A stretch of DNA of 64,000 bases from the NCBI GenBank assembly GCA_964447335.1, contig CAYUSA010000001.1, positions 63,091 to 127,090 on the forward strand, read 5' to 3'. Origin of the DNA: an uncultured Actinomycetes bacterium (GTDB lineage: Bacteria; Actinomycetota; UBA4738; HRBIN12). Each line of letters begins with the position of its first letter. Position 1 is the stretch's first letter. The notes under the pieces are model-generated. The model saw nothing but the letters and a program-made list of their open reading frames with translations, searched no databases and had not been told where the DNA came from. A program made the translations under genes and the position numbers. This document shows positions 4,749 through 18,055 of the stretch, in pieces.

Positions 4749-6983
4749 ATGCTTCCACCATGTTCTTCGGAGCGCCCGGTGGCGCTGACGCTCGCCTCGC
4801 CGGTCGAGGCGATCGATCGGCAGCTCGCGAACCGCCGCACCGGGTTCCGGACCAAGGGAGACCCGGCGCACGAGGTCCTCTCAGCCTCGCTCGGCATCCA
4901 GATCGTGGGGCAGCTGTTGCACCACTACCCGCGCCGGTACATCGACCGCTCGCAGGTGGCCAGGATCCGCGACCTCAAGATCGGGCAGCAGGCGACCGTG
5001 ATCGCGACGGTGAAGCGCGCGGTCAAGCGCCAGACCCGGCGTCACCAGACGATGGTCACCGTCACGCTGTACGACGGCTCCGGGTACCTGGATCTCACGT
5101 TCTTCAACCAGCCCTGGATGGCCTCGATGTACAAGGAGGGACACGAGGTCGCGGTCTCGGGCGTCGTGCAGCTCTACAAGGGTCGGCTCCAGCTCGCGAA
5201 CCAGGAGGTCGAGCTCCTCAAGGGCGACGAGGCCGACCTGGTCCACACCGGTCGCATCACGCCGGTCCACCGCGCGACCGATGGCATCACGACGCGCACG
5301 ATCCGGGAGCTGGTGCATCGCGCGCTCGAGCAGCTCCGCACGATCGCCGACCCGATGCCGCCCGACGTCGTCGCGGCCGAGCGGCTCTCCGCGTTCGACG
5401 GCGCGATCCGCCAGGTCCACTTCCCCGCCTCGCAGGAGGAGCGCCGGGCGGCCGAGGAGCGCCTGAAGTTCGACGAGCTGTTCACGCTCGAGCTCGGCGT
5501 GGCGTTCCGCAAGCACCGCGTCGAGGCCGCCCAGACCGGCGTCCGGCACGAGCCGGACGGGGCCCTCGTCCGGCGCCTGCTCGCGACGCTGCCGTTCGAG
5601 CCGACCGGCGCGCAGACGCGCGCGATGGGCGAGATCGACACGGCGATGGCGCGCCCCCGCCCGATGAACTTGCTCCTGCAGGGCGACGTCGGCTCGGGCA
5701 AGACGCTCGTCGCGCTCCACGCCGCGCTCGTCGCGATCCAGTCCGGGCACCAGGCCGCGATCATGGCCCCGACCGAGGTCCTCGCGGGGCAGCACTTCCG
5801 GTCGATGGCGGCGCTGCTCGGCCCCTTCGGCGCGATCCCGTACCTCGAGCTCACGGGCGCGCCGGATGACGGGCCGCAGAGCTCACTGCTCGAAGGACCC
5901 GAGGACGTACCCGCCGAGGCCGGGGTCACGTACGCGCTCCTCACCGCCGGGGTCACCGGCAAGGACCGGGTGCGGATCCTCGAGGGCATCGCGGGCGGCG
6001 ACGTCGACCTGGTCGTGGGGACCCACGCGCTCGTCCAGGAAGGGGTCGCGTTCGCCGACCTCTCGCTCGCGGTGATCGACGAGCAACACCGCTTCGGCGT
6101 GCACCAGCGCATGGCACTGAAGGGGAAAGGCGGCTCGCCGGACGTCCTCATCATGACGGCGACGCCGATCCCGAGGACCCTCGCGCTCACGTACTACGGC
6201 GATCTCGACGTCGTCGTCCTCGACGAGATGCCGAAGGGCCGGCAGCCGGTCGAGACGAAGATCGCGCGCACCAAGCAGGAACGCGACGCCGCCTACGCGC
6301 TCATACGCCGCGAGGTCGAGGCCGGACGGCAGGCGTTCGTGGTCTGCGCCGCGATCGACGAGGCGAACAAGAGCGAGGTCCGCGCCGCCGAGGCGGAGGC
6401 GAAGCGGCTTGCCGAGGACGTCTTCCCCGACCTCTCGCTCCACCTGTTACACGGCCGCATGCGTCCCGCCGAGAAGGAGCGCGTGATGGAGGCGTTCCGC
6501 TCGGGCGAGCACCACCTGCTGATCTCGACCACCGTGATCGAGGTCGGTGTCGACGTGCCGAACGCGACGGTCATGCTCGTCGAGAACGCCGAGCGGTTCG
6601 GACTCGCGCAGCTCCACCAGCTCCGGGGCCGGATCGGCCGCGGCGAGCACGCCTCGTCCTGCGTGCTCTTCGACGAGTCGAAGCAGGACAACGAGGAGGC
6701 CCGCGCCCGCCTGGACGCGATGGTCCGCACGACCGACGGCTTCGAGCTCGCCGACGAGGACCTGCGGCTCAGAGGTGAGGGCACCCTCTTCGACGTGAAA
6801 CAGTCCGGCATGCCCGACCTGAAGCTTGCGCGCCTGGCCGAGGACCTCGAGCTCGTCAAGCGCGCCCGCGCCCGTGCGTTCGCCGTGATCGACGAAGACC
6901 CGTCCCTCGAACGGCACCCCGGCCTGCTCCTCGAGCTCCGCTCGCGCTTCGAGCGCTCGATCGAGTGGCTTTTCCACTCCTGA
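4749..6983 (+). CDS. recG: ATP-dependent DNA helicase RecG
   Basis: 744 aa with a wedge-domain N-terminus, helicase motifs GDVGSGKT and [10 protein letters not shown], and the C-terminal [12 protein letters not shown]. Confidence 0.92.
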
Positions 6984-7013
6984 TGCTCGCCCGGCGGATG
7001 GGCCGCGGATACC

Positions 7014-10000
7014 ATGCGCGTAGATGAGTCCGTGGAAGTGCAACACGTGACGCCCGACCCTGGCAACTCGGCCCCCGAGCCGGGGGCCGGAGCCGGGGGG
7101 TCCTCAGCGCCGCCGGCGCGTCCACCCCGCCCCGGCGTCGCGCGCGTCTGCGCGGCCGTCGCCGCCCTCCTCGGCGGCCTCGTCCTCGTCGGCTGGGCCC
7201 TCGGCATCGAGGTGCTGAGGAGCCCGCTCCCCGGCGAGGTCTCGATGAAGCCCAACACGGCCCTGTCGTTCCTGCTGCTCGGACCTGCGCTCCTCCTGCT
7301 CCTCGTCGGGAGGGCGGAACGCCGCCTTCGCGCCGCCGGAAGGCTCCTGGCCCTTGCTCCCGTGATCGTCTCCCTGCTCACGCTGGCGGAGTACGCGTTC
7401 GACCGTGACCTCGGGATCGACGAGCTGCTGTTCCGCGACACGACGGCCGCGGTTGCCACCGTCGTGCCGGGCAGGCCGGCGCCGTTGACGGCCGTCTGTT
7501 TCCTGCTGCTCGGGTCGGCGCTCCTCGTGCTCGATCGTCGACGCGGCGCAGGTCTCGCGCAGGTGCTCGGATCGGTCGCGGGCTTCGTGGGGCTCCTCGG
7601 GCTCCTGCCGTACCTCTACGGCCTGCGGTCGTCCTCGGGGCTCATCGCGCGCGAGACCCAGATGGCGATGCACACGGCGGTGGCGATGGTCCTCCTCGGA
7701 GTGGGCGTGGTGCTGGCTCGTCCGGATCGGGGGCCGATGGCCTTCGTCGGCAGCGACACGATCGGGGGGAGCCTTGCCCGGCGCCTGCTGCCCGTTGCGG
7801 TTGGCCTGCCCGTCGCCGCCGGCTGGCTGGCCGTGGGGGGCCAGCGCTTGGGGCTGTACGACCCCGGCTTCCGCGTCTCGGTCGTGGCGACCGCGAGCGC
7901 TGCCGTCCTCGCGGTGCTGACGTGGGTGGGGACTCGGTCCGCCCACCGCTCGGACCTCGCACGCAGGCAGGCGGAGCGAACGCGCGTGGACCTGTTCCGC
8001 GCCAATCCCAGCGCCGGGTGGGTCACCCGCATGTCCGATGGTCTGTTCGTCGACGTCAACGAGGCGTTCGCCCAGACCTTCGGCCGGGCCAGGGAAGACC
8101 TGATCGGCCGGACTTCCGTCGAGCTCAACATCTGGGCGGATCTGGGGGAGCGCGAGGCCGTGATGCGGATGCTTCGCGAGCAAGGGACGGTCGAGGGTAT
8201 GGAAGCGCACCTCCGCGACACCAACGGACGTTCGTTCCCCGCCCTGTTCGCGGCGAGGGTCGAGGAGATCGACGGCGAGCCGCACGTCGTGGGCTCGCTC
8301 CTGGACATATCCGAGCGGAGGCGCGCGGATGAGGAACGGGAACGGTCCGCGAGGCGTCTCGAGGGGCTGAACGCGATCGGTCGCGACATCCTGGGCGCCC
8401 GATCGACGGAAGAAGTGACTCGCGTGGGCCTCGCGCGCCTGCGCGAGCTGGTCCCCTGCATGCGGGCCTCCCTCGCCCGGTTCGACCCGGCGACGCAAGA
8501 GCTGGTGATCCTGGCTCTGGACGCGGAGGGGGAGACCGAGGTCGGGATCGGCGCGCGCTTCCCCCTCACCGCGGCCGGCCCAACGGACAGGCTCCGGCGC
8601 GGTGAGATCAACCGGATCCCCGACACGCTGGAGGTGCGGGACCCGTCACCGTCGGTGCGTCGATTGATCGAGGAGGGTGTACGGATGTACGCGAACGTAC
8701 CGATGGTGGCCGCGGGGGAGCTGATCGGCACCATCAACCTGTCGTCCGCAACGCCGGGCGGATTCGCAGAGGAGGAGCTCGATGCCACCCGGGAGGTGGC
8801 CGACCTCCTCACCGTGGCGCTGGTGGAGTCGGACCTCCGGGACGAGCTGCGACGGCACGCGGAGGACCTGGAGCAGCGGGTGGCCGAGCGGACCGCGGCT
8901 CTGTCCGAGAGCGAGACCCGCTGCCGGTCGCTCCTGGCCAACGCCCCCGACGGGGTCCTACTCGTCGACCCGGCGGGGGTGATCGCGTTGGCGAACGACA
9001 CGGCCGCGACGCTCTTCGGCTACGAGGTGATCGAGCTTCACGGGCTGCCCGTGGAGGTGCTCGTGCCCGAGTCGCTCTGGGCGACCCACGGGAGGCACCG
9101 GGAGGAGTACTCCACCGAGCACGTCGCTCGACCCATGGGAACGGGACTTGCGCTCCGCGGACGGCGCAAGGACGGGACGGAGTTCCCCGCCGACATCTCC
9201 CTGAACTCGATCCTCCCCGACAACGCCCACGGCGGGCCGAGCGCGATCGCATTCGTTCGGGACGTCACGGAGCGGGAGCGGATCGAGGAGGCGATCGTCG
9301 CGGCCAAGGAGGAGGCCGAACGGGCGAACCGGGCCAAGGACGAGTTCCTCTCGCGGATGAGCCACGAGCTCCGCACGCCGTTGAACGCGGTCCTCGGGTT
9401 CGCCCAGGTGCTCGAGATGGAGGATCTACCGCCCGAGCAGCACGACAGCGTCCGGCAGATCCGCATGGGAGGGCAACACCTGCTCGAGCTGATCAACGAG
9501 GTCCTGGACATCTCGCGGGTCGCGACCGGGGATCTCTCGCTCTCGCTCGAGCCGGTCGGGGTGAGCGAGACGCTCCGCGACGTCGTCGACCTCGCCCAGC
9601 CGCTCGCCGCCGACCGGGGCATCACGCTGCGGCTGGAGGATGCCAGCGGGCTCCACGTCCTGGCCGACCGCCAGCGGCTCAAGCAGGTCCTGTTCAATCT
9701 GCTCTCCAACGCGATCAAGTACAACCGCGAGGGGGGCAGTGTGGACGTCTCCTGGGCCGAGGCGCCGGAGGGGAAGCTCCGGATCCACGTCACCGACACG
9801 GGTCCCGGGATCCCCCCCGAGCGGATGGGGCAGGTGTTCGTCTCCTTCGACCGTCTGGGGGCCGAGGCGGGCGGCGTCGAGGGGACCGGCCTCGGGCTGT
9901 CCTTGTCGAAGGCCCTGGCCGAGGGGATGGGGGGAACGCTCGAGGTGAAGAGCGAGGTGGGGGCCGGCTCGGTCTTCACGGTCGAGCTGCCGCTCGCCGA

Positions 10001-10445
10001 GCCGCCCGACCAGCGCTACGAGCGGGAGCCCCGTGAGCACGACCGGATGGAGGAGCGCGGGCAGGCCCGGACCGTGCTGTACGTGGAGGACGACCTGTCC
10101 AACCTCCGGCTGATCGAACGGATCCTCGACCGACGGCCGGGGGTCCGCCTGCTGACCGCGATGCAGGGGCGCCTCGGGATCGAGCTCGCCCGAAAGCACA
10201 AGCCGGACCTCATCCTGCTCGACCTGCACCTGCCGGACATCGGCGGGGAGGAAGCGCTCCGCTGGCTCCGGGGAGATCCCGCCACGGCGGGCATCCCCGT
10301 CGTCGTGATCTCGGCGGATGCCACCCAAGCCCAGATCGAGACGCTGCTCGCCGCGGGGGCGCGTGAGTTCGTGACCAAGCCGATCGACGTGAAGCGGTTC
10401 CTGCAGGTCGTGGACGACGTGTTGCGAGGGCCCGAGGATGGGTGA
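7014..10445 (+). CDS. hybrid sensor histidine kinase (membrane domain, PAS/GAF/PAS, HisKA, HATPase_c, REC)
   Basis: 1143 aa. The HisKA motif is MSHELRTPLNAVLGFAQVLE; the ATPase G-boxes are DTGPGIPPE and GTGLGLSLSKALAEG; the C-terminal receiver carries TVLYVEDD, LILLDLHLPD and VTKPID. The true start may be downstream of 7014. Confidence 0.8.
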   Translation: MRVDESVEVQHVTPDPGNSAPEPGAGAGGSSAPPARPPRPGVARVCAAVAALLGGLVLVGWALGIEVLRSPLPGEVSMKPNTALSFLLLGPALLLLLVGRAERRLRAAGRLLALAPVIVSLLTLAEYAFDRDLGIDELLFRDTTAAVATVVPGRPAPLTAVCFLLLGSALLVLDRRRGAGLAQVLGSVAGFVGLLGLLPYLYGLRSSSGLIARETQMAMHTAVAMVLLGVGVVLARPDRGPMAFVGSDTIGGSLARRLLPVAVGLPVAAGWLAVGGQRLGLYDPGFRVSVVATASAAVLAVLTWVGTRSAHRSDLARRQAERTRVDLFRANPSAGWVTRMSDGLFVDVNEAFAQTFGRAREDLIGRTSVELNIWADLGEREAVMRMLREQGTVEGMEAHLRDTNGRSFPALFAARVEEIDGEPHVVGSLLDISERRRADEERERSARRLEGLNAIGRDILGARSTEEVTRVGLARLRELVPCMRASLARFDPATQELVILALDAEGETEVGIGARFPLTAAGPTDRLRRGEINRIPDTLEVRDPSPSVRRLIEEGVRMYANVPMVAAGELIGTINLSSATPGGFAEEELDATREVADLLTVALVESDLRDELRRHAEDLEQRVAERTAALSESETRCRSLLANAPDGVLLVDPAGVIALANDTAATLFGYEVIELHGLPVEVLVPESLWATHGRHREEYSTEHVARPMGTGLALRGRRKDGTEFPADISLNSILPDNAHGGPSAIAFVRDVTERERIEEAIVAAKEEAERANRAKDEFLSRMSHELRTPLNAVLGFAQVLEMEDLPPEQHDSVRQIRMGGQHLLELINEVLDISRVATGDLSLSLEPVGVSETLRDVVDLAQPLAADRGITLRLEDASGLHVLADRQRLKQVLFNLLSNAIKYNREGGSVDVSWAEAPEGKLRIHVTDTGPGIPPERMGQVFVSFDRLGAEAGGVEGTGLGLSLSKALAEGMGGTLEVKSEVGAGSVFTVELPLAEPPDQRYEREPREHDRMEERGQARTVLYVEDDLSNLRLIERILDRRPGVRLLTAMQGRLGIELARKHKPDLILLDLHLPDIGGEEALRWLRGDPATAGIPVVVISADATQAQIETLLAAGAREFVTKPIDVKRFLQVVDDVLRGPEDG

Positions 10446-12780
10446 GGCGGCAGAGCGACCGTCGACCGCGAGGGATCGCCTTTGGCGGTGGTACCTGGGA
10501 TCGGTCTTGTTCTTGGCGGTGCTCTTCGTCCCGCTGCGGGGATCCGACCGGGCGGTCGCCATCCTCAGCGTCGGAGGGATCACCTCGATGCTCGTGGCCA
10601 TCCCGGTGGGGCTCCGTCTCCACCGTCCGGCCGACGTGCGGCCCTGGTACGTGATCCTCGCCGGGATGGCGGGGTCCGTCGTCACGAACGCGATCTCGTA
10701 CTCGGCGAACACCCGGGCCGCCACGCCGGCGTACCCCTCCGTCGTGGACGTCCTCTACGTCGGAGCGTACGTCGTCGTCGTCGCGGGGTTCGCGCTGTTC
10801 GTTCGCGCGAAGATCGCACGGGGTGACCGGGACGGCTTCATCGACGCTCTGATCGTGACCGCGGGGCTGGGGGTGCTGTCCTTCGTCCTCCTGATCGATC
10901 CGTACCTGGACGACGCGAACCTTTCCGCTGTGGCCCGCGCGACGTCCATGTCCCACCCGCTCCTCGAGCTCGCGCTCCTGGGTATCGCCGCACGCCTCGT
11001 ATTCCTGCCGGGGAGGAGGCCCGTCGCGCTCTGGTTCGTCTGCCTGTACGCCGCCCTGTCGTTCGCCGGAGACGCCGTCTACGGCGTCCAGGTCCGGGCC
11101 GAGACCTTCTCGTTCGAGAGCGGGGCCAACGCGCTCTGGATCGCCTCGTTCGCTTTCTTCGGCGCCGGTGCGCTCCACCCGTCGATGCGGGAGCTGACGG
11201 AGCGCCGCAGAGGAGCCGTGTCGGGGAACGGGACGGCCCGACTGGTGGCCTTGGGGGTCATGGCGATGCTGGGCCCCGCGACGTTGGCGATCGGCTGGGG
11301 CCATGCCTCTGGGCACTTCCGTCAGGTTGGCGCGATCTCTGCGGCCGTGGTCGCCCTGGTCCTCGGCCGCATGTGGATGCTGACCGTGGGCCTCGAGACG
11401 CACCGCAGGGCCCAGCAGGCGCTCAGAGAGAGCGAGGAGCGGTCCCGGCGCCTGTCGGACGCGACCTTCGAGGGGGTCATCGTGATCGCGGACGGGAGGA
11501 TCGTCGAGGCGAACCGGGCGTTCCTCGAGATGTTGGGGCTGGAAGCCGAGCAGGTGGTGGGCCTGGCTCCGGAGGAGCTGATAGCGCCCGAGTCCGTCCC
11601 GACGATCTACGAGCACCTGCGCTCCGGGACCGAGGAGCCGTGGGAGATGGAGGTCGTTCTCCGTAACGACCGCCGGATGTGGCACGAGTCGAGGGCGAGC
11701 ACCATCCCCTATGGCGGGTCGGAGGCGCGGGTGATCTCGATCCGCGACATCACGGAGCGGAGGCGCGTGGACGCCGCGCTCCGGGAGAGCGAGCAGCGGT
11801 TCCGGACCTTGTTCGAGACGGCGCTCGACGCGATCGTGGTCATCGATGCTGAAAGCACGATCGTTCAGGCGAACCCGGCCGCTTCCGAGCTCGTCGGGGT
11901 CTCGACCGACCGGATGGTCGGACGCGGCTTCGGGGGGCTCATCGCCCCCGGCTTCGACGCCGACGCCGCACGGGAGACCGCCCACGGGATCGAGGGGTTC
12001 CGCGTGGACATCCCGATCGTGGCGGCCGATGGGACCGAGCGAAAGGTGGAGGCCACCGCCGGCCTGCTCCCCGACGGGAACCTGGTGATCGTCGCCAGGG
12101 ACGTCTCCGAGCGCCGGCGTGCCGAGGAGGAGCTCCGCCGGGCGGAGGACCGATACCGCTCGCTGGTGGAGCGGCTCCCCGGCGCCGTGTACGTGGATGT
12201 TCCCGAGGGCGGCTTGGCCGGGTACACGTCGGTCTTCATCAGCCCCCAGGCCGAGACCCTTCACGGCTACGCGCCGGAGGAGTTCCTGGCCGATCCCGAT
12301 CTCTGGCCCCGGATCCTTCATCCCGAGGACCGCGAGCGGGCCCTGGAGGCCGACGCTCGTCACTGGAAGACCGGCGAGCCCCTGGACCAGGAGTTCCGCG
12401 TGATCGCCAAGGACGGCCGGGTGGTGTGGGTCCGGGACCGGGCCGTCCTGTTGCGCGACGACCAGGGCCGGGCCCTGATGTCCCAGGGGTTCCTGACGGA
12501 CATGACGGACCAGAAGGAGGCGGAGACCCTGCGCGACGCCAGGGACGAGGCCGAGCGCGACAACCGGGTGAGAAGCGAGTTCCTGTCGCGCATGAGTCAC
12601 GAGCTCCGGACGCCGCTGAACGCCATCCTCGGGTTCGGCCAGGTGCTGGAATCATCGTCCCTCGCGCCGGAGGACCGCGACAGCGTGGAGCGGATCATGG
12701 AGGGCGGCCGCCGGCTGCTCGAGCTGGTCGACGACCTGCTCGAGATCTCGCGGACCGGCGGCGGCGCGGGGCGGGGCTAG
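10438..12780 (+). CDS. PAS-rich sensor kinase paralog lacking the ATPase domain (truncated)
   Basis: Membrane domain, three to four PAS repeats, and a HisKA box MSHELRTPLNAILGFGQVLE. It ends 20 aa after the dimerisation helix (LLELVDDLLEISRTGGGAGRG*) with no HATPase_c. The start overlaps the previous gene's stop. Confidence 0.7.
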   Translation: MGEAAERPSTARDRLWRWYLGSVLFLAVLFVPLRGSDRAVAILSVGGITSMLVAIPVGLRLHRPADVRPWYVILAGMAGSVVTNAISYSANTRAATPAYPSVVDVLYVGAYVVVVAGFALFVRAKIARGDRDGFIDALIVTAGLGVLSFVLLIDPYLDDANLSAVARATSMSHPLLELALLGIAARLVFLPGRRPVALWFVCLYAALSFAGDAVYGVQVRAETFSFESGANALWIASFAFFGAGALHPSMRELTERRRGAVSGNGTARLVALGVMAMLGPATLAIGWGHASGHFRQVGAISAAVVALVLGRMWMLTVGLETHRRAQQALRESEERSRRLSDATFEGVIVIADGRIVEANRAFLEMLGLEAEQVVGLAPEELIAPESVPTIYEHLRSGTEEPWEMEVVLRNDRRMWHESRASTIPYGGSEARVISIRDITERRRVDAALRESEQRFRTLFETALDAIVVIDAESTIVQANPAASELVGVSTDRMVGRGFGGLIAPGFDADAARETAHGIEGFRVDIPIVAADGTERKVEATAGLLPDGNLVIVARDVSERRRAEEELRRAEDRYRSLVERLPGAVYVDVPEGGLAGYTSVFISPQAETLHGYAPEEFLADPDLWPRILHPEDRERALEADARHWKTGEPLDQEFRVIAKDGRVVWVRDRAVLLRDDQGRALMSQGFLTDMTDQKEAETLRDARDEAERDNRVRSEFLSRMSHELRTPLNAILGFGQVLESSSLAPEDRDSVERIMEGGRRLLELVDDLLEISRTGGGAGRG

Positions 12781-12811
12781 CACGGCCTGTACGGACGGCG
12801 GGACGCCCGGC

Positions 12812-12883
12812 GCCTACCTCACGAAGCCGTTCGACGTGAAGCGATCCCTGGGCGTCGTCGGAGGTTCCCTCGGGGGCGCGTAG
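12812..12883 (+). pseudogene. receiver-domain C-terminal remnant (AYLTKPFDVKRSLGVVGGSLGGA*)
   Basis: A short peptide in a different frame, right after the truncated kinase. It matches the receiver tail of the 7014..10445 gene (FVTKPIDVKRFLQVV). Confidence 0.5.
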
Positions 12884-12893
12884 GGCCGAGTCC

Positions 12894-14096
12894 TCACCCG
12901 GCGCCCGGCGCTGAGCCCTCGGCGGGAGCCACGAGCCCACCGCCCGAGGTCGCGGTCGCCGGGACCCAGCACTCGACCGTCGTACCCTTCCCGGGCGCCG
13001 TGTCGACGCGCCACCAGCCCCCTGCGAGCTCGGCGCGTTCTCGCATCGCCTTGAGCCCGAGGTGGTGCGAGGTGAGCGACGGGGGTCGCTCGGGGTCGAA
13101 GCCCCTGCCGTCGTCTCGGACCGTGAGGCGGAATCCGTGGTCCGCCTCCTCCACCTCCACGGTGACGCTGGTGGCGCGTGCGTGCTTCGCCACGTTCGCG
13201 AGCGCCTCCTGCGCGATCCGGTACAAGAGCGTGCGCACCCCCAGCTCCGGTTCCTCCGTGATCCGCCGCTCGACGCGCCAGGTCCACCCGGTGTCGGGGG
13301 GCGTGCGCTCGAGGTACTCGGAGAGCGCCTCCGCCAGGCCACCCGAGTCGAGCGCGGAGGGGTGCAGCTCGAAGAGCATGCGTCGGAGCCGGTCCATGGC
13401 TTGATGCACGATCGCCTCGGTCGTCGCGAGCTCCGCGGCCTCCTCGGTCCCCTCGAGCTTGTCGCGGAGCATCTGGAGGCGCAGCACGGCCGCGACCATG
13501 GCCTGCACCGGGTCGTCGTGGATGTTGTACGCGATGCGCCGCTGCTCGTCCTCCTGCGCCGCCACGAGGCGCGCGAGGAGCAGCCGGCGCGTGTCCTGGG
13601 ACGCCCGGAGGTCCCGCAGGGCATCCGAGAGCTCGGCGGTCCGCTCCTCGACCAGCTGCTCCAGGTGCTCGGCGTGCAAGCGAACCTGGAGATGCAGGTC
13701 CCGCGTATGGAGCAGGTTCCGGATCCGAAGGACGGCCTCGACGGCATCGAACGGCTTGGTCAGGAAATCCGAGGCCCCAGCCGCGAGGGCCTTCCGCTTC
13801 GCCGCCTCCGTCACGTCCGCCGTCAGGACCAGCACCGGGAGGAAGTCCTCGGCCGGGACGACCTGGTGGAGGCCCTCGAGGATCTGGTGCCCGCTGACGT
13901 GGGGCATCAGCAGGTCGAGGAGGACGATGTCCGGCTGCCACTCGCGCACGAGCGGGATCGCCTCGCGCGCGTCGGTCGTCCCGTGCACGTGCGGGAACCC
14001 GGCTCCGTACAGCAATCGCTCGAGCAGGCGGACGTTCGGTTCCTCGTCGTCCACGATCAAGATCCGGTGGTCCGTCGGCGCGGTGGTCTCCGTCAT
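12894..14096 (-). CDS. hybrid response-regulator/histidine kinase (REC, HisKA_3, HATPase_c)
   Basis: N-terminal receiver (ILIVDDEE, DIVLLDLLMP, VLVLTAD, FLTKPFD), a coiled coil, the His box RIAYNIHDDPVQ, and an ATPase domain (ANVAKHA...TVRDDGRGFDP...GLKAMRERAELAGG). Confidence 0.8.
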   Translation of the reverse strand: MTETTAPTDHRILIVDDEEPNVRLLERLLYGAGFPHVHGTTDAREAIPLVREWQPDIVLLDLLMPHVSGHQILEGLHQVVPAEDFLPVLVLTADVTEAAKRKALAAGASDFLTKPFDAVEAVLRIRNLLHTRDLHLQVRLHAEHLEQLVEERTAELSDALRDLRASQDTRRLLLARLVAAQEDEQRRIAYNIHDDPVQAMVAAVLRLQMLRDKLEGTEEAAELATTEAIVHQAMDRLRRMLFELHPSALDSGGLAEALSEYLERTPPDTGWTWRVERRITEEPELGVRTLLYRIAQEALANVAKHARATSVTVEVEEADHGFRLTVRDDGRGFDPERPPSLTSHHLGLKAMRERAELAGGWWRVDTAPGKGTTVECWVPATATSGGGLVAPAEGSAPGAG

Positions 14097-14716
14097 GGTC
14101 GGTCCTCCTTCATCCGGCGTCGGCGAGGGTCTGGTCGAGGAGCTTGAGGAACCGCGCGACGTCGAGCGGTTTCGTCATGCATCCGCGAGCGCCCGCGGCG
14201 ACCAGCCGCTCCAGCTTGCTCCGGGTCGTGTCCGCGGTGAGCACGACCATCGAGGATGTGAGCGGTCTCCGGTTCCTCCAGCAGCTTCGAGAGCACGAGC
14301 TCTCCCGACATGTCGGGCAGGCGCAGGTCCAGGAGCACGAGGTCGGGGCGGGTCGTGCGCAGGTGTCGATGCCCAGCGCGCCCGAGGTGACGGCGAGCAG
14401 GTGGATGTGTGGGCGCCGCGTGAGGACCTTCTCGAGCAGCTTGACGTTCGTCGGGTTGTCCTCGATGTAGACGATGGTGGCCGGCCCGTCTCGGGAGCGC
14501 CTGGAACGCCTTGAGCGCCGGTGTCCTCTTGGGGGCCTCCAGGAGGTCGATGCGGAAGCTCGTCCCCCGGCCGGGCACGCTGCTGACGCGGATCGTCCCA
14601 CCTGTGGCCTCGACGAGACGCTTCGTGAGCGCGAGGCCGAGGCCAGCGCCGCGAACCGGGCCCGTCTCGGCGCCGAGCCGCTCGAAGGGGGAGACCTGAG
14701 CGACAGGTCCCGCCAT
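14093..14716 (-). pseudogene. frameshifted 3' fragment of a hybrid kinase (HATPase_c C-terminus plus REC)
   Basis: Homologous segments are split across three minus-strand frames: FERLGAETGPVRGAGLGLALTKRLVEATGGTIRVSS, TIVYIEDNPTNVKLLEKVL, PDLVLLDLRLPDMSGE and VVLTADTT...CMTKPLDVARFLKLL. There are no upstream HisKA or sensor parts. Confidence 0.65.
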
Positions 14717-14916
14717 GCGGAACGCAACTGCACACGCCCTCCTCTCTCTTCGCGGGCGCGGGATGTCGTTCCCGAGGACGCAACCCTAGCGCTTGGTTCC
14801 CCGGCTGCGAATAAGCCGAAGGTCACAGGTCTGCCGTCCCCTTTCCGGGTGATGCTCGATCCCGGGCGGGCCCCCACCGGCGTGAGCGACCCCGGGCTCC
14901 CGAGACGGCGCGGGCC

Positions 14917-16314
14917 GTGGGTGATAATGACCGTCCGGGACGGTCTCTCCAGGAGGGTCGGTTGAGGGACACGAGGCCGCACGAGCCTCGGGGAGCCATT
15001 CGTGGTCACGCCGGTAGCGGCGGTCGTGCTCTCCGGGCGGCGATCGTCTACGCGGTGCTGGGGGTCCTGTGGGTCCTGTTCTCCGACCGGCTCCTCGTGT
15101 GGCTGGTTCGCGACCCGCAGACGCGGGATGTGGTCCAGACCGCGAAGGGGTGGCTGTTCGTCTCGGTGTCTGCCGTGCTCGTGTACGGGTTCGTCCGGCT
15201 CGCCGAGCGGGCCGAGCGCCGTGCCGCTCGGGCCGAGGACTCCCTCCGGGCGAGCCAGGAGTGGCTTCGGAGCATCGCGGAGAACGTGACCGACATGATC
15301 TTCCGGTACCGGGTGGCGGAGCCGCAGGGGTACGAGTACGTGAGTCCCTCCTCGACCGAGATCACGGGTTTCACGCCGGAGGAGCACTACGCGGATCCCC
15401 GTCTGCCTTTCCAGATCGTCCACGGTGACGATCGGAGCGCGCTCGAGCGGCTGCTGTGCGGCGAGTCACGCGGCGAGCGCGTGCGCTTCCAGCGCAAGGA
15501 CGGCAGCACGATCTCGACCGAGTTCCGCGTGCGTGCGATCCTCGACGAGACGGGTCGGCCGGTCGCGGTCGAGGGGATCATTCGCGACGTCACGGCGCTC
15601 GCGCTCACCGAGCAGGAGCTGGAGGAGCGCGTTCTCGACTTCGGGAAGCTGGCCGAGGAACGGCTGGCGCTCATGCGCAAGCTCGTGCACGCGCAGGAGG
15701 AGGAGCGCCGGCGCATCGCGCTCGAGATCCACGACGGGATCGGCCAGGTGCTCACCTCGATCTCGCTCTACGCCTCGGATCTGCCGGAGGTCGTCCCCGA
15801 GGAGCACCGCGCCCGCGCCGAGAGGGTCCGCGAGCTCATCCAGCGTGCGATCGCCGACAGCCGGATGCTCGTCTGGAGCCTGCGTCCGCCGGACCTCGAG
15901 CGCCTGGGCCTGGTCCCGGCGATCCAGCACCTCGTCGAGAACCTCCTCGACCATGCGACGGAGCACCTCGACCATGCGACGGAGCACATCGATGTGCTGG
16001 ACGAGACCAAGGGCCGGCGCCTGACACCCGAGATCGAGACCGTGGTCTTCCGCATCGTGCAGGAGGCACTGAACAACGCGACGAAGTACGCGCACGCATC
16101 GTCCATCTCGGTCGTGGTGGCCATCCGGGACGGCGTGCTCTCCGCGGTGGTCGAGGACGACGGTCGTGGTTTCGACGTCGAGACCGTCGACACGTTCGGT
16201 GGCGTCGGTATGGGCGGGATGCGCGAGCGTGCGGACTTCGTGGGCGGTAGGTTGGTCGTCGAGTCGGCGAAGGACGTCGGCACCGTGGTCCGGCTGGAGG
16301 TCCCGATCCCGTGA
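14917..16314 (+). CDS. PAS sensor histidine kinase (HisKA_3 + HATPase_c)
   Basis: Two transmembrane helices, a PAS domain, the His box RRRIALEIHDGIGQ, and an ATPase domain (QEALNNATKYAHAS...VEDDGRGFD...GMGGMRERA). It contains an in-frame 21-bp tandem duplication (LDHATEH twice). The true start is probably downstream of 14917. Confidence 0.8.
   Translation: MGDNDRPGRSLQEGRLRDTRPHEPRGAIRGHAGSGGRALRAAIVYAVLGVLWVLFSDRLLVWLVRDPQTRDVVQTAKGWLFVSVSAVLVYGFVRLAERAERRAARAEDSLRASQEWLRSIAENVTDMIFRYRVAEPQGYEYVSPSSTEITGFTPEEHYADPRLPFQIVHGDDRSALERLLCGESRGERVRFQRKDGSTISTEFRVRAILDETGRPVAVEGIIRDVTALALTEQELEERVLDFGKLAEERLALMRKLVHAQEEERRRIALEIHDGIGQVLTSISLYASDLPEVVPEEHRARAERVRELIQRAIADSRMLVWSLRPPDLERLGLVPAIQHLVENLLDHATEHLDHATEHIDVLDETKGRRLTPEIETVVFRIVQEALNNATKYAHASSISVVVAIRDGVLSAVVEDDGRGFDVETVDTFGGVGMGGMRERADFVGGRLVVESAKDVGTVVRLEVPIP
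15947..15988 (+). repeat. perfect 21-bp tandem duplication (ctcgaccatgcgacggagcac twice) inside the kinase gene
   Basis: Direct reading of the sequence; it encodes LDHATEH twice. Confidence 0.85.
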
Positions 16315-16952
16315 GCGAGCGGCCCATCCAGGTGATGTTGATGGACGACCACAACGTCGTCCGCGAGGGCCTCCGGGCCCTCCTCGAGCGCCAGACCGAC
16401 ATCCGCGTCGTCGCGGAGGCCGGCACCGTCGCCGAGGCCGAGGCGGCCGAGGTCGAGCCCGACGTGGTCGTCGCCGACCTGGTGCTGCCTGACGAACGCG
16501 GCGCCGAGGTCGTCCGGCGCCTGCGCGAGCGATTCCCCCACTCGGCGATCCTGGTCCTCACGATGGTGGACAACCCGACCGACGTGCAGCTGTGCCTGGC
16601 GGCGGGTGCGAAGGGGTACCTGATGAAGGAGGCCGCGGGCGCCGAGCTGACGGACGCCGTGCGGGCGGTCGCTCAGGGACGCGAGTACCTGCAGCCGGCG
16701 CTCGGTGCGGTGCTCGCGCGGTGGCGCGAGGCACCCGGGAAGATCAGTGCGAAGGCGTCGGTCGACCTCGGCGAGCGCGAGCGCGAGGTGCTGCGCCTGA
16801 TCGCCCTCGGTCACACGAACGCCGAGATCGCGCGCCTACTGTTCCTGTCGGTCCGCACCGTCGAGAACCACCGCGCCAGCCTGATGCGCAAGCTCGGCGT
16901 GAAGACCAGGGCGGACCTGGTCCGGCACGCGACCCAGTCCGGTCTGGTCTGA
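16311..16952 (+). CDS. LuxR/NarL-family response regulator
   Basis: Receiver domain (VMLMDDH, VVVADLVLPD, ILVLTMVD, YLMK) plus a C-terminal LuxR helix-turn-helix (EREVLRLIALGHTNAEIARLLFLSVRTVENHRASLMRKL). The start overlaps the kinase stop. Confidence 0.88.
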   Translation: MSERPIQVMLMDDHNVVREGLRALLERQTDIRVVAEAGTVAEAEAAEVEPDVVVADLVLPDERGAEVVRRLRERFPHSAILVLTMVDNPTDVQLCLAAGAKGYLMKEAAGAELTDAVRAVAQGREYLQPALGAVLARWREAPGKISAKASVDLGEREREVLRLIALGHTNAEIARLLFLSVRTVENHRASLMRKLGVKTRADLVRHATQSGLV

Positions 16953-17012: not shown

Positions 17013-17567
17013 GTGCGGGTCGTCGCCGGCAGCGCGAAGGGTGTCCGCCTCGGCCCGGTGCCCAAGGGCGTGAGGCCGGTCTCCGACATGGCCCGCGAGG
17101 GCCTGTTCTCCAGCCTCGGCCCCCGGGTCCCCGGCGCGCGGGTGCTCGACCTGTTCGCGGGCACGGGCGCGCTGGGCATCGAGGCCCTGTCCCGCGGGGC
17201 CGCCGAGGCCGTGTTCGTGGACCGGGCCCGTTTGGCGACGGCGGCCATCCAGGAGAACCTCGAGCGCACGCGCCTGACAGACGAGGCTGTGGTCGTCGGC
17301 GTGGATGTGCGTGCCTTTCTCACGAGAGATGACAAGAACGGGGCTCCGTTCGACCTCGTGCTGGCGGATCCGCCCTACGAGCTCCAGGGCCCCGAGCTGG
17401 ACGGCGTGCTCGCCGACCTCGCCGACGGGTGGCTGGCGGCGCCCGGGTGGACGGTGGCCCTGACCCGCAGGAAGGGGAGTTCCACGCCTGTCATTCCGGT
17501 AGACTGGCTCGCTGCCAGGCGCCTGGTGTACGGCGACACCCTGGTGGTGCTCTTGCGGGAGGCATAG
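17013..17567 (+). CDS. rsmD: 16S rRNA (guanine966-N2)-methyltransferase RsmD
   Basis: GTG start. Motifs VLDLFAGTGALGIEALSRGA and LADPPY. Confidence 0.85.
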   Translation: MRVVAGSAKGVRLGPVPKGVRPVSDMAREGLFSSLGPRVPGARVLDLFAGTGALGIEALSRGAAEAVFVDRARLATAAIQENLERTRLTDEAVVVGVDVRAFLTRDDKNGAPFDLVLADPPYELQGPELDGVLADLADGWLAAPGWTVALTRRKGSSTPVIPVDWLAARRLVYGDTLVVLLREA

Positions 17568-17569
17568 CG

Positions 17570-18055
17570 ATGGGCCTGACCGCCCTGTGTCCCGGGACGT
17601 TCGATCCCGTGACGAACGGTCATCTCGACATCATCGAACGTGCAGGTCAGCGCTTCGACGCGGTGGTCGTCGGCGTGCTCGACAACCCTGCCAAGCAGCC
17701 CTTGTTCAGCGTGGAGGAGCGCGTGCAGATGTTGAAGGAGGTCACCTCGGGGATGCCGAACGTCTCCGTGACCTCGTTCGGCGGATTGCTCGTCGAATCG
17801 GCAAAGTCGCTCGGCGCCGACGTCGTGGTGAAGGGCCTGCGGGCGGTCACCGATTTCGAGTACGAGATCCAGATGGCGCAGATGAACCACGCGCTCGCCG
17901 GCATGGAGACGCTGTTCATAACGACGAGCCCGGCCTGGTCGTTCCTGTCATCGTCCCTGGTCAAGGAGGTCGCCCGTTTCGGCGGCGACGTGAGCGGGCT
18001 CGTCCCGCCGATCGTCGCGAAGCGGCTGGCGGACAAGCTCGGAGGTGGTTCGTAG
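17570..18055 (+). CDS. coaD: phosphopantetheine adenylyltransferase
   Basis: MGLTALCPGTFDPVTNGHLDIIERA...SSSLVKEV. The start is placed at the ATG at 17570, rejecting the ORF-track 5' extension. Confidence 0.9.
   Translation: MGLTALCPGTFDPVTNGHLDIIERAGQRFDAVVVGVLDNPAKQPLFSVEERVQMLKEVTSGMPNVSVTSFGGLLVESAKSLGADVVVKGLRAVTDFEYEIQMAQMNHALAGMETLFITTSPAWSFLSSSLVKEVARFGGDVSGLVPPIVAKRLADKLGGGS

Follow-up and report, generated by a model that had tools for sequence, protein, structure and literature searches.

A probable hybrid sensor histidine kinase pseudogene preceding an intact receiver-led kinase gene in an uncultured actinomycete

RESULTS

A block of two-component genes between recG and two downstream ORFs

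The window analyzed here is the whole 64,000-nucleotide stretch of DNA taken from contig CAYUSA010000001.1 (assembly GCA_964447335.1, positions 63,091 to 127,090) of an uncultured Actinomycetes bacterium. It has a GC content of 71.4%, and searches for rRNA and tRNA genes found none. The GC content, the gene order around recG, and the best match to gene B (described below) suggest a high-GC bacterium that probably belongs to Actinomycetota. A two-component block of ~10 kb (7014-16952) lies in it between recG (4749..6983) and ORFs at 17013-18055, which from their translations we take to be rsmD and coaD. The recG, rsmD, and coaD genes are near neighbors in many Actinomycetota, and the two-component block may be a lineage-specific insertion. 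Its content is three hybrid-kinase paralogs, two of them damaged, two HisKA_3 kinases, and one LuxR-type regulator. The first paralog, HK1 (7014..10445, plus strand), is intact and encodes 1143 aa with the Pfam domain order PAS-GAF-PAS-HisKA-HATPase_c-REC. The second, HK2 (10438..12780, plus strand), was identified from the ORF list and Pfam as a 780-aa gene with three PAS domains and HisKA, after which it stops. On the minus strand lies gene B (12894..14096), an intact gene of 400 aa with the order REC-HisKA_3-HATPase_c, full-length Pfam domains, and a GC3 of 0.93. It is preceded by the damaged third paralog that is the subject of this study. The remaining genes of the block, a divergent PAS-HisKA_3-HATPase kinase (14917..16314) and the LuxR-type regulator (16311..16952), are both on the plus strand and were also assigned from the ORF list and Pfam.

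The C-terminal part of a hybrid kinase upstream of gene B

The remnant of the third paralog (HK3) lies on the minus strand from about 14692 to 14110 and comprises the last ~50 residues of HATPase_c, a linker, a complete REC, and its own stop codon. The initial annotation had reported the last ~60 aa of an ATPase domain followed by a complete receiver at 14093-14716. A fragment is indeed present there, with similarity far above chance, and the receiver is complete, but the homologous DNA extends only from ~14692 to 14110; the 14093..14716 interval is a 207-codon incidental open frame on the minus strand that covers the remnant. A tblastn search of the window with the HK1 protein (7014..10445), the comparison which that annotation had suggested, gave two matches in different frames, one at 14686..14255 in frame -1 (HK1 aa 945-1094; 39%, E of 4e-16) and the other at 14478..14125 in frame -2 (HK1 aa 1020-1137; 37.5%, E of 1.5e-20). 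The Pfam matches of the unrepaired frames were only partial, covering 60-107/111 of the HATPase_c profile (E of 1.6e-8) and 32-73/111 of Response_reg. When the frames were joined into a single translation of 204 aa, which is without in-frame stops, Response_reg was matched over 1-110/111 with 65.4 bits, compared to 74.2 bits for the HK1 receiver, and the HATPase_c match (60-107/111) still began only at profile position 60. The receiver is full length only after this conceptual repair; in the actual DNA it is divided between two frames. No match to HisKA was found in the remnant by Pfam.

The repaired remnant was 46% identical to HK1 over 197 aa and 44-52% identical to many (hundreds of) hybrid kinases. 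Compared with 5.8 billion proteins, it matched 228 at an E of ≤1e-20 (lowest E, 3e-56), almost all of which carry HATPase_c plus Response_reg. In the alignments, the G2 box can still be read, as can the receiver positions E-D, D, T, and K. No close relative, that is, none above 52% identity, was found among the genome contigs, the metagenome contigs, and the 5.8 billion proteins. Proteins of 229-278 aa that start in the middle of HATPase_c and run into the receiver without a HisKA or sensor region were also seen on contigs of 37 kb to 1.4 Mb (P0006, P0018, P0079, and P0104 among them). These may be 5′-truncated or split hybrid kinases like the remnant, or they may be gene-calling artifacts.

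Three net frameshifts interrupt the remnant

A purpose-written frameshift-tolerant protein-to-DNA alignment was run with HK1 and with three unrelated homologues. All four alignments required three net shifts and followed the path a-b-a-b through two minus-strand frames. The earlier count of at least three frameshifts for a one-gene reading is therefore borne out, whereas the pieces do not occupy three frames, as had been proposed, since tblastn, alignment, and GC3 place them in two frames only. The first segment, in frame a (14536..14716), is the C-terminal part of HATPase_c with the G2 box (GAGLGLALTKRLVEATGG). Confident homology starts in it near 14692, with the frameshift-aware alignments beginning at 14692, or at 14719 with gaps, and these alignment starts place the putative 5′ deletion junction at ~14692-14719. 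The inter-domain linker (14481..14535) contains frameshift 1, a net +1 change from frame a to frame b, as seen from the different frames on its two flanks. The homologues place this shift at 14475-14535, and as linkers are not conserved, it cannot be localized more closely. Receiver segment 1 (TIVYIEDNPTNVKLLEKVLTRRPHIHLLAVTSGALGIDTCA; 14363..14480) follows in frame b, carries the acidic E-D pair, and was found by tblastn in frame -2 and by alignment.

Frameshift 2, from frame b back to frame a, was placed by all four alignments at 14348..14362, directly before the PDLVLLD strand, and consists of 1 nt lost or 2 nt gained; counted from GI to PD, the residues of the homologues leave 8 nt where 9 are expected. 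Receiver segment 2 (PDLVLLDLRLPDMSGELVLSKLLEEPETAHI; 14255..14347), which carries the phospho-acceptor Asp, lies in frame a and was found by tblastn in frame -1 and as the Response_reg match at 32-73. At frameshift 3 (14251..14254), also placed by all alignments, 1 nt has been gained, so that CTCG replaces the single Pro codon of the homologues and the reading passes from frame a to frame b. Receiver segment 3 (MVVLTADTTRSKLERLVAAGARGCMTKPLDVARFLKLLDQTLADAG; 14110..14250), found by tblastn and alignment in frame b, contains the conserved Thr and Lys and ends with the original stop codon at 14112..14110. The GC3 values of the four segments, in this order, were 0.88, 0.97, 0.91, and 0.91, compared to 0.89-0.94 for the intact genes of the window, and the phase of this signal flips exactly at the inferred shifts. 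The last segment was reported by automatic gene callers as a 46-aa gene (14110..14250, minus strand) on the Logan contigs described below. Both this ORF and the 207-codon frame are apparently a consequence of the high GC content and not genes.

Three Logan contigs (L001-L003) carry the exact gene B protein, and they come from runs SRR13723393, SRR13723394, and SRR13723397. Over aligned lengths of 4071, 12116, and 6925 bp, in the order of the runs, these independently assembled contigs match the window with 100% identity. All of the frameshift sites are included, as are the junction at the 5′ end of the remnant and that between HK2 and gene B. Because three assemblies of different runs agree completely, the frameshifts are not random sequencing errors; the runs have neighboring numbers and probably belong to one study and one pipeline, so that this agreement excludes random error and not a shared systematic artifact. 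The initial annotation had named sequencing error as the finding that would overturn its reading, and at the level of assemblies no such error appeared. Inspection of the sequence showed no long homopolymers at the frameshift sites. The long genes in the neighborhood, HK1 (1143 aa) and RecG (744 aa), are intact, and the sequence quality is therefore judged to be good. Programmed frameshifting was considered and rejected, since the shift sites lack slippery homopolymers and heptamers and since it would be implausible for a gene to have three such shifts, with the direction alternating.

The kinase body is absent from the upstream spacer

The remnant is separated from the divergent kinase gene by a noncoding spacer (14717..14916) that shows no homology to the N-terminal parts of kinases, no codon periodicity, and no Pfam or Rfam match. 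Sensitive tblastn searches (word size 2, E up to 20) with HisKA and the first half of HATPase_c from HK1 and the three homologues gave no match on either strand of 14717-15000. Nor does the sequence upstream of the remnant contain a counterpart to the N and G1 boxes of the homologues. The GC periodicity by codon position was absent from 14717-14961, and the open upstream frame had no Pfam match. The ~700-900 missing residues have left no coding signal upstream of the remnant. Because homology and periodicity are absent and the divergent gene begins only ~200 nt away, the body of the kinase is gone rather than hidden in another frame. The view that only noncoding sequence lies from 14717 onward thus stands, and tblastn, Pfam, the alignments, and the upstream search agree with the initial annotation that this is the 3′ fragment of a hybrid kinase without a gene body. 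Neither a plausible start codon nor a Shine-Dalgarno sequence was found for the homologous frame.

The interval 14717-14961 was also examined for a structured RNA or a regulatory element, and both were rejected. No Rfam family was found in this interval, the sole match being a sub-threshold chance snoRNA inside gene B; the RNA fold of the spacer was nothing unusual (z = 0.70); and no sigma-70 or terminator consensus was found in 14717-14961, although such promoter scans are weak for high-GC organisms. An 18-nt inverted repeat (14481-14498 and 14896-14913, 16/18 complementary) flanks the ATPase remnant and the spacer. Its 13-nt core has 3 matches in the window compared to 1.16 expected, and 11 of 100 shuffles reach 3. 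The repeat was rejected as the ends of a mobile element on account of this chance frequency and of the kinase homology, which continues through it, and it is probably meaningless.

HK2 is a damaged paralog, probably separate from the remnant

The plus strand directly after HK2 reads GAYLTKPFDVKRSLGVVGGSLGGA and a stop codon at ~12809-12884, out of the HK2 frame. Within it, YLTKPFDVKRSLGVVGGSLGGA and the stop (12815..12884) form an out-of-frame REC tail, the translation of which is 57% identical to HK1 aa 1119-1139 (12 of 21 aa; E of 1e-3 in a 2.35-kb target). By hand count, only 9 of the 21 aa are identical between the HK2 tail and that of the remnant. Similarity between inverted repeats (I1, I22) also links the HK2 REC tail to other REC tails. 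Judged from sequence, this arrangement points to an internal deletion of ~270 aa in HK2, which took out the ATPase domain along with the larger part of the receiver (HK1 ~841-1114), together with a change of frame. The initial annotation had called this paralog at 10438 truncated; it is damaged, but not simply truncated, as the deletion is internal and the gene keeps a REC tail of its own. The kinase encoded by HK2 would lack an ATPase domain, and the gene is probably a second pseudogene. Because HK2 keeps its own REC tail and the remnant has a complete receiver and tail, the remnant is assigned to a third, separate kinase gene. An excised and reinserted piece of HK2 was rejected as its source, as the receiver tail, stop, and ribosome-binding site of the remnant overlap in content with the tail retained by HK2.

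Gene B follows a hybrid kinase at distant loci

The stop codon of the remnant (14112..14110) is followed after 13 nt by the ATG of gene B (14096) on the same strand, and an AAGGAGG ribosome-binding site overlaps the stop. Such a junction is typical of an operon. This context had been missed in the initial annotation. Searches of genome and metagenome collections retrieved 160 loci with the gene B receiver, of which 141 were informative. At 91 of these 141 loci, a hybrid-kinase C-terminus matching the whole repaired remnant was found on the same strand 10-220 nt upstream of the receiver-led gene, a count that refers to loci fetched by generic receiver motifs and scored by our own rule, not to a curated ortholog set. 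The recurring pair spans many phyla (L004-L163), with examples at L004 (5430-9564), L017 (4041-8285), L053 (6621-9370), and L012 (5145-9495). The downstream gene opens with the receiver motif IVDDEEPN ... DFLTKPFD; its output domains vary, and HisKA_3-HATPase as in gene B is present only at some loci.

The best full-length relative of gene B (49% identity) was found at locus L004, in an Actinomycetota metagenome-assembled genome (JBBDHU010000003.1). This locus has a hybrid kinase of 973 aa (5430..8351) and, 4 nt further on, a REC-HisKA_3-HATPase gene of 402 aa (8356..9564). The arrangement resembles the one described here in gene order, strand, tight spacing (4 nt compared to 13 nt), and the architecture of the downstream gene. 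It differs in that the upstream kinase is intact whereas only the last ~195 codons are left here, and the likeness is one for which strict orthology is not established. The L004 kinase resembles HK1 (56%) more than the remnant (45%) and has an HK2-like PAS region. Also among the closest relatives of gene B are full-length genes (45-48%) in two Chloroflexota metagenome-assembled genomes (L005, 9-1795; L006, 5754-8125), which follow a HisKA-HATPase kinase without a receiver. In these, the gene-B-type receiver occupies the place where the receiver of a hybrid kinase would be, and the pair may exist there in fused or minimal form. Gene B and HK2 have no cluster mates at 90% identity, both being singletons. 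Because the pair recurs at distant loci and the spacing is of the operon type, the best reading of the remnant is that its gene once preceded gene B as a partner in an operon, an interpretation drawn from conserved gene order rather than from strict orthologs.

DISCUSSION

The remnant is very probably a genuine pseudogene of a third hybrid sensor histidine kinase, HK3, that once shared an operon with gene B and was then disabled by a deletion and by small insertions or deletions. It combines significant homology to a functional gene family with disabling lesions that do not come from random error, as expected of a pseudogene. HK3 (sensor-HisKA-HATPase_c-REC) and gene B would once have formed a two-gene operon. 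A deletion would then have taken the promoter-proximal part of HK3, namely, the sensor, HisKA, and about the first 60% of the ATPase domain, and the same event would have joined the rest of HK3 to the spacer before the divergent kinase gene at 14917. Afterwards or alongside, the frame of the receiver would have been broken by three small indels. The DNA of the remnant would now most likely be only a transcribed 5′ leader that still bears the ribosome-binding site of gene B, and the promoter now serving gene B presumably lies in, or beyond, the 14717-14916 spacer. We infer the order of these events, the recency of the decay, and the present transcription start of gene B. The GC pattern by codon position is kept, the motifs are intact, and the repaired reading has no in-frame stops, all of which suggests that the inactivation was recent.

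Most probably, the remnant no longer encodes a working protein. As it lacks HisKA, the N box, and the G1 box, it cannot bind ATP or autophosphorylate, and since its receiver, lying in two frames, cannot fold either, no functional protein would be made from it. Another role for this DNA was nevertheless weighed, in which the remnant has been retained for a function, with the 207-codon frame (14716..14093) serving as a coupling leader or with a small peptide, the 46-aa receiver end, being made. The open frame does cover the whole remnant, its TGA overlaps the ATG of gene B (ATGA), and the 46-aa ORF was predicted by gene callers. However, long off-frame ORFs are usual in DNA of 71% GC and occur by the dozens in the window, the 14716 ATG has no Shine-Dalgarno sequence at a usable distance, half of the 207-codon frame reads the receiver codons out of register, gene B has its own strong AAGGAGG, and no relatives showing conservation appeared among the proteins and clusters searched. 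To our knowledge, a 46-aa α4-β5-α5 piece cannot fold as a receiver (the CheY fold), which counts against the small peptide. Retention for a function is thus very improbable. In a related proposal, gene B has lost its own upstream hybrid kinase and would now receive its input from HK1 (7014..10445), with the remnant kept as a transcribed or translated leader that sets the expression of gene B through the ATGA overlap. HK1 was put forward as the new feeder of gene B because, of the kinases in the window, it is the most similar to the partners of gene-B-type proteins (56% compared to 45% at L004). If true, a multi-kinase relay would have been caught here in the course of being rewired, but we give this proposal only a slim chance.

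Two further explanations concern where the fragment came from. The frameshifts, the truncation, or both could be artifacts of sequencing or assembly that conceal an intact hybrid kinase, and the assembly is apparently derived from a metagenome and its high-GC DNA is prone to drops in coverage. Against this, three assemblies of different runs are identical over 4071-12116 bp, including all of the shifts and both junctions; the shift sites are not long homopolymers and the flanking long genes are unbroken; and there is no upstream coding sequence for ~700-900 residues, with a divergent intact gene starting ~200 nt away. An artifact is accordingly very improbable. A different origin would be that the remnant is the lost C-terminus of HK2, flipped along with gene B by an inversion with breakpoints in the HK2 ATPase domain and beyond gene B. 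HK2 ends right after HisKA and the remnant starts in the middle of HATPase_c, so that each roughly supplies what the other lacks; the gene order and strands, with the 5′ part of HK2 on the plus strand and then gene B and the remnant on the minus strand, are exactly as such an inversion predicts; and at L004 a kinase with an HK2-like PAS region stands directly before the relative of gene B. However, HK2 already has a 3′ end of its own, the REC tail and stop at 12815-12884 on the plus strand, and this tail is nearer to that of HK1 (12/21) than to that of the remnant (9/21). Moreover, ~108 aa (HK1 837-944) are absent from both HK2 and the remnant, inverted repeats flanking the segment were not found, and the model calls for at least two deletions on top of the inversion, compared to two deletions if HK3 was a separate gene. 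An inversion is therefore unlikely, and the loss of most of a separate HK3 gene is the reading that we prefer.

If HK3 is a pseudogene, the ORFs at 14093..14716 and 14110..14250 should be annotated as one pseudogene and not as proteins. The annotation of the kinase HK2 (780 aa, 10438..12780) should note an internal deletion with loss of the ATPase domain. The locus would record the ordinary turnover of paralogous two-component genes, in which a receiver-regulated kinase can outlast its upstream partner. The remnant challenges nothing in current understanding.

Among known systems, the repaired remnant is most like the hybrid sensor kinases (TorS, ArcB, BarA, HrmK, and the NahK/ErcS type), with which it shares the order HATPase_c-REC. 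It aligns unbroken with the TorS, ArcB, and HrmK NCBIfam models across the end of HATPase, the linker, and the receiver (for TorS, model positions 633-822 with an E of 1.7e-26), although at scores far under the curated cutoffs (92 compared to 676 bits). It differs from these kinases in having no sensor, HisKA, N box, or G1 box and in a frame that is broken three times. By sequence comparison, the hybrid histidine kinases are the family of origin of the remnant, which does not count among their functional members. Its closer counterparts are ordinary bacterial pseudogenes, with which it has in common a truncated 5′ end, several frameshifts, a kept codon-position composition, and an intact neighbor. 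Truncation and frameshifts together with preserved codon-position composition are the textbook signs of a fairly young pseudogene, and the remnant is probably just that, an ordinary and young one. The only difference from such cases, and a slightly unusual one, is the second damaged paralog with its internal deletion (10438..12780), which lies just 1.3 kb away.
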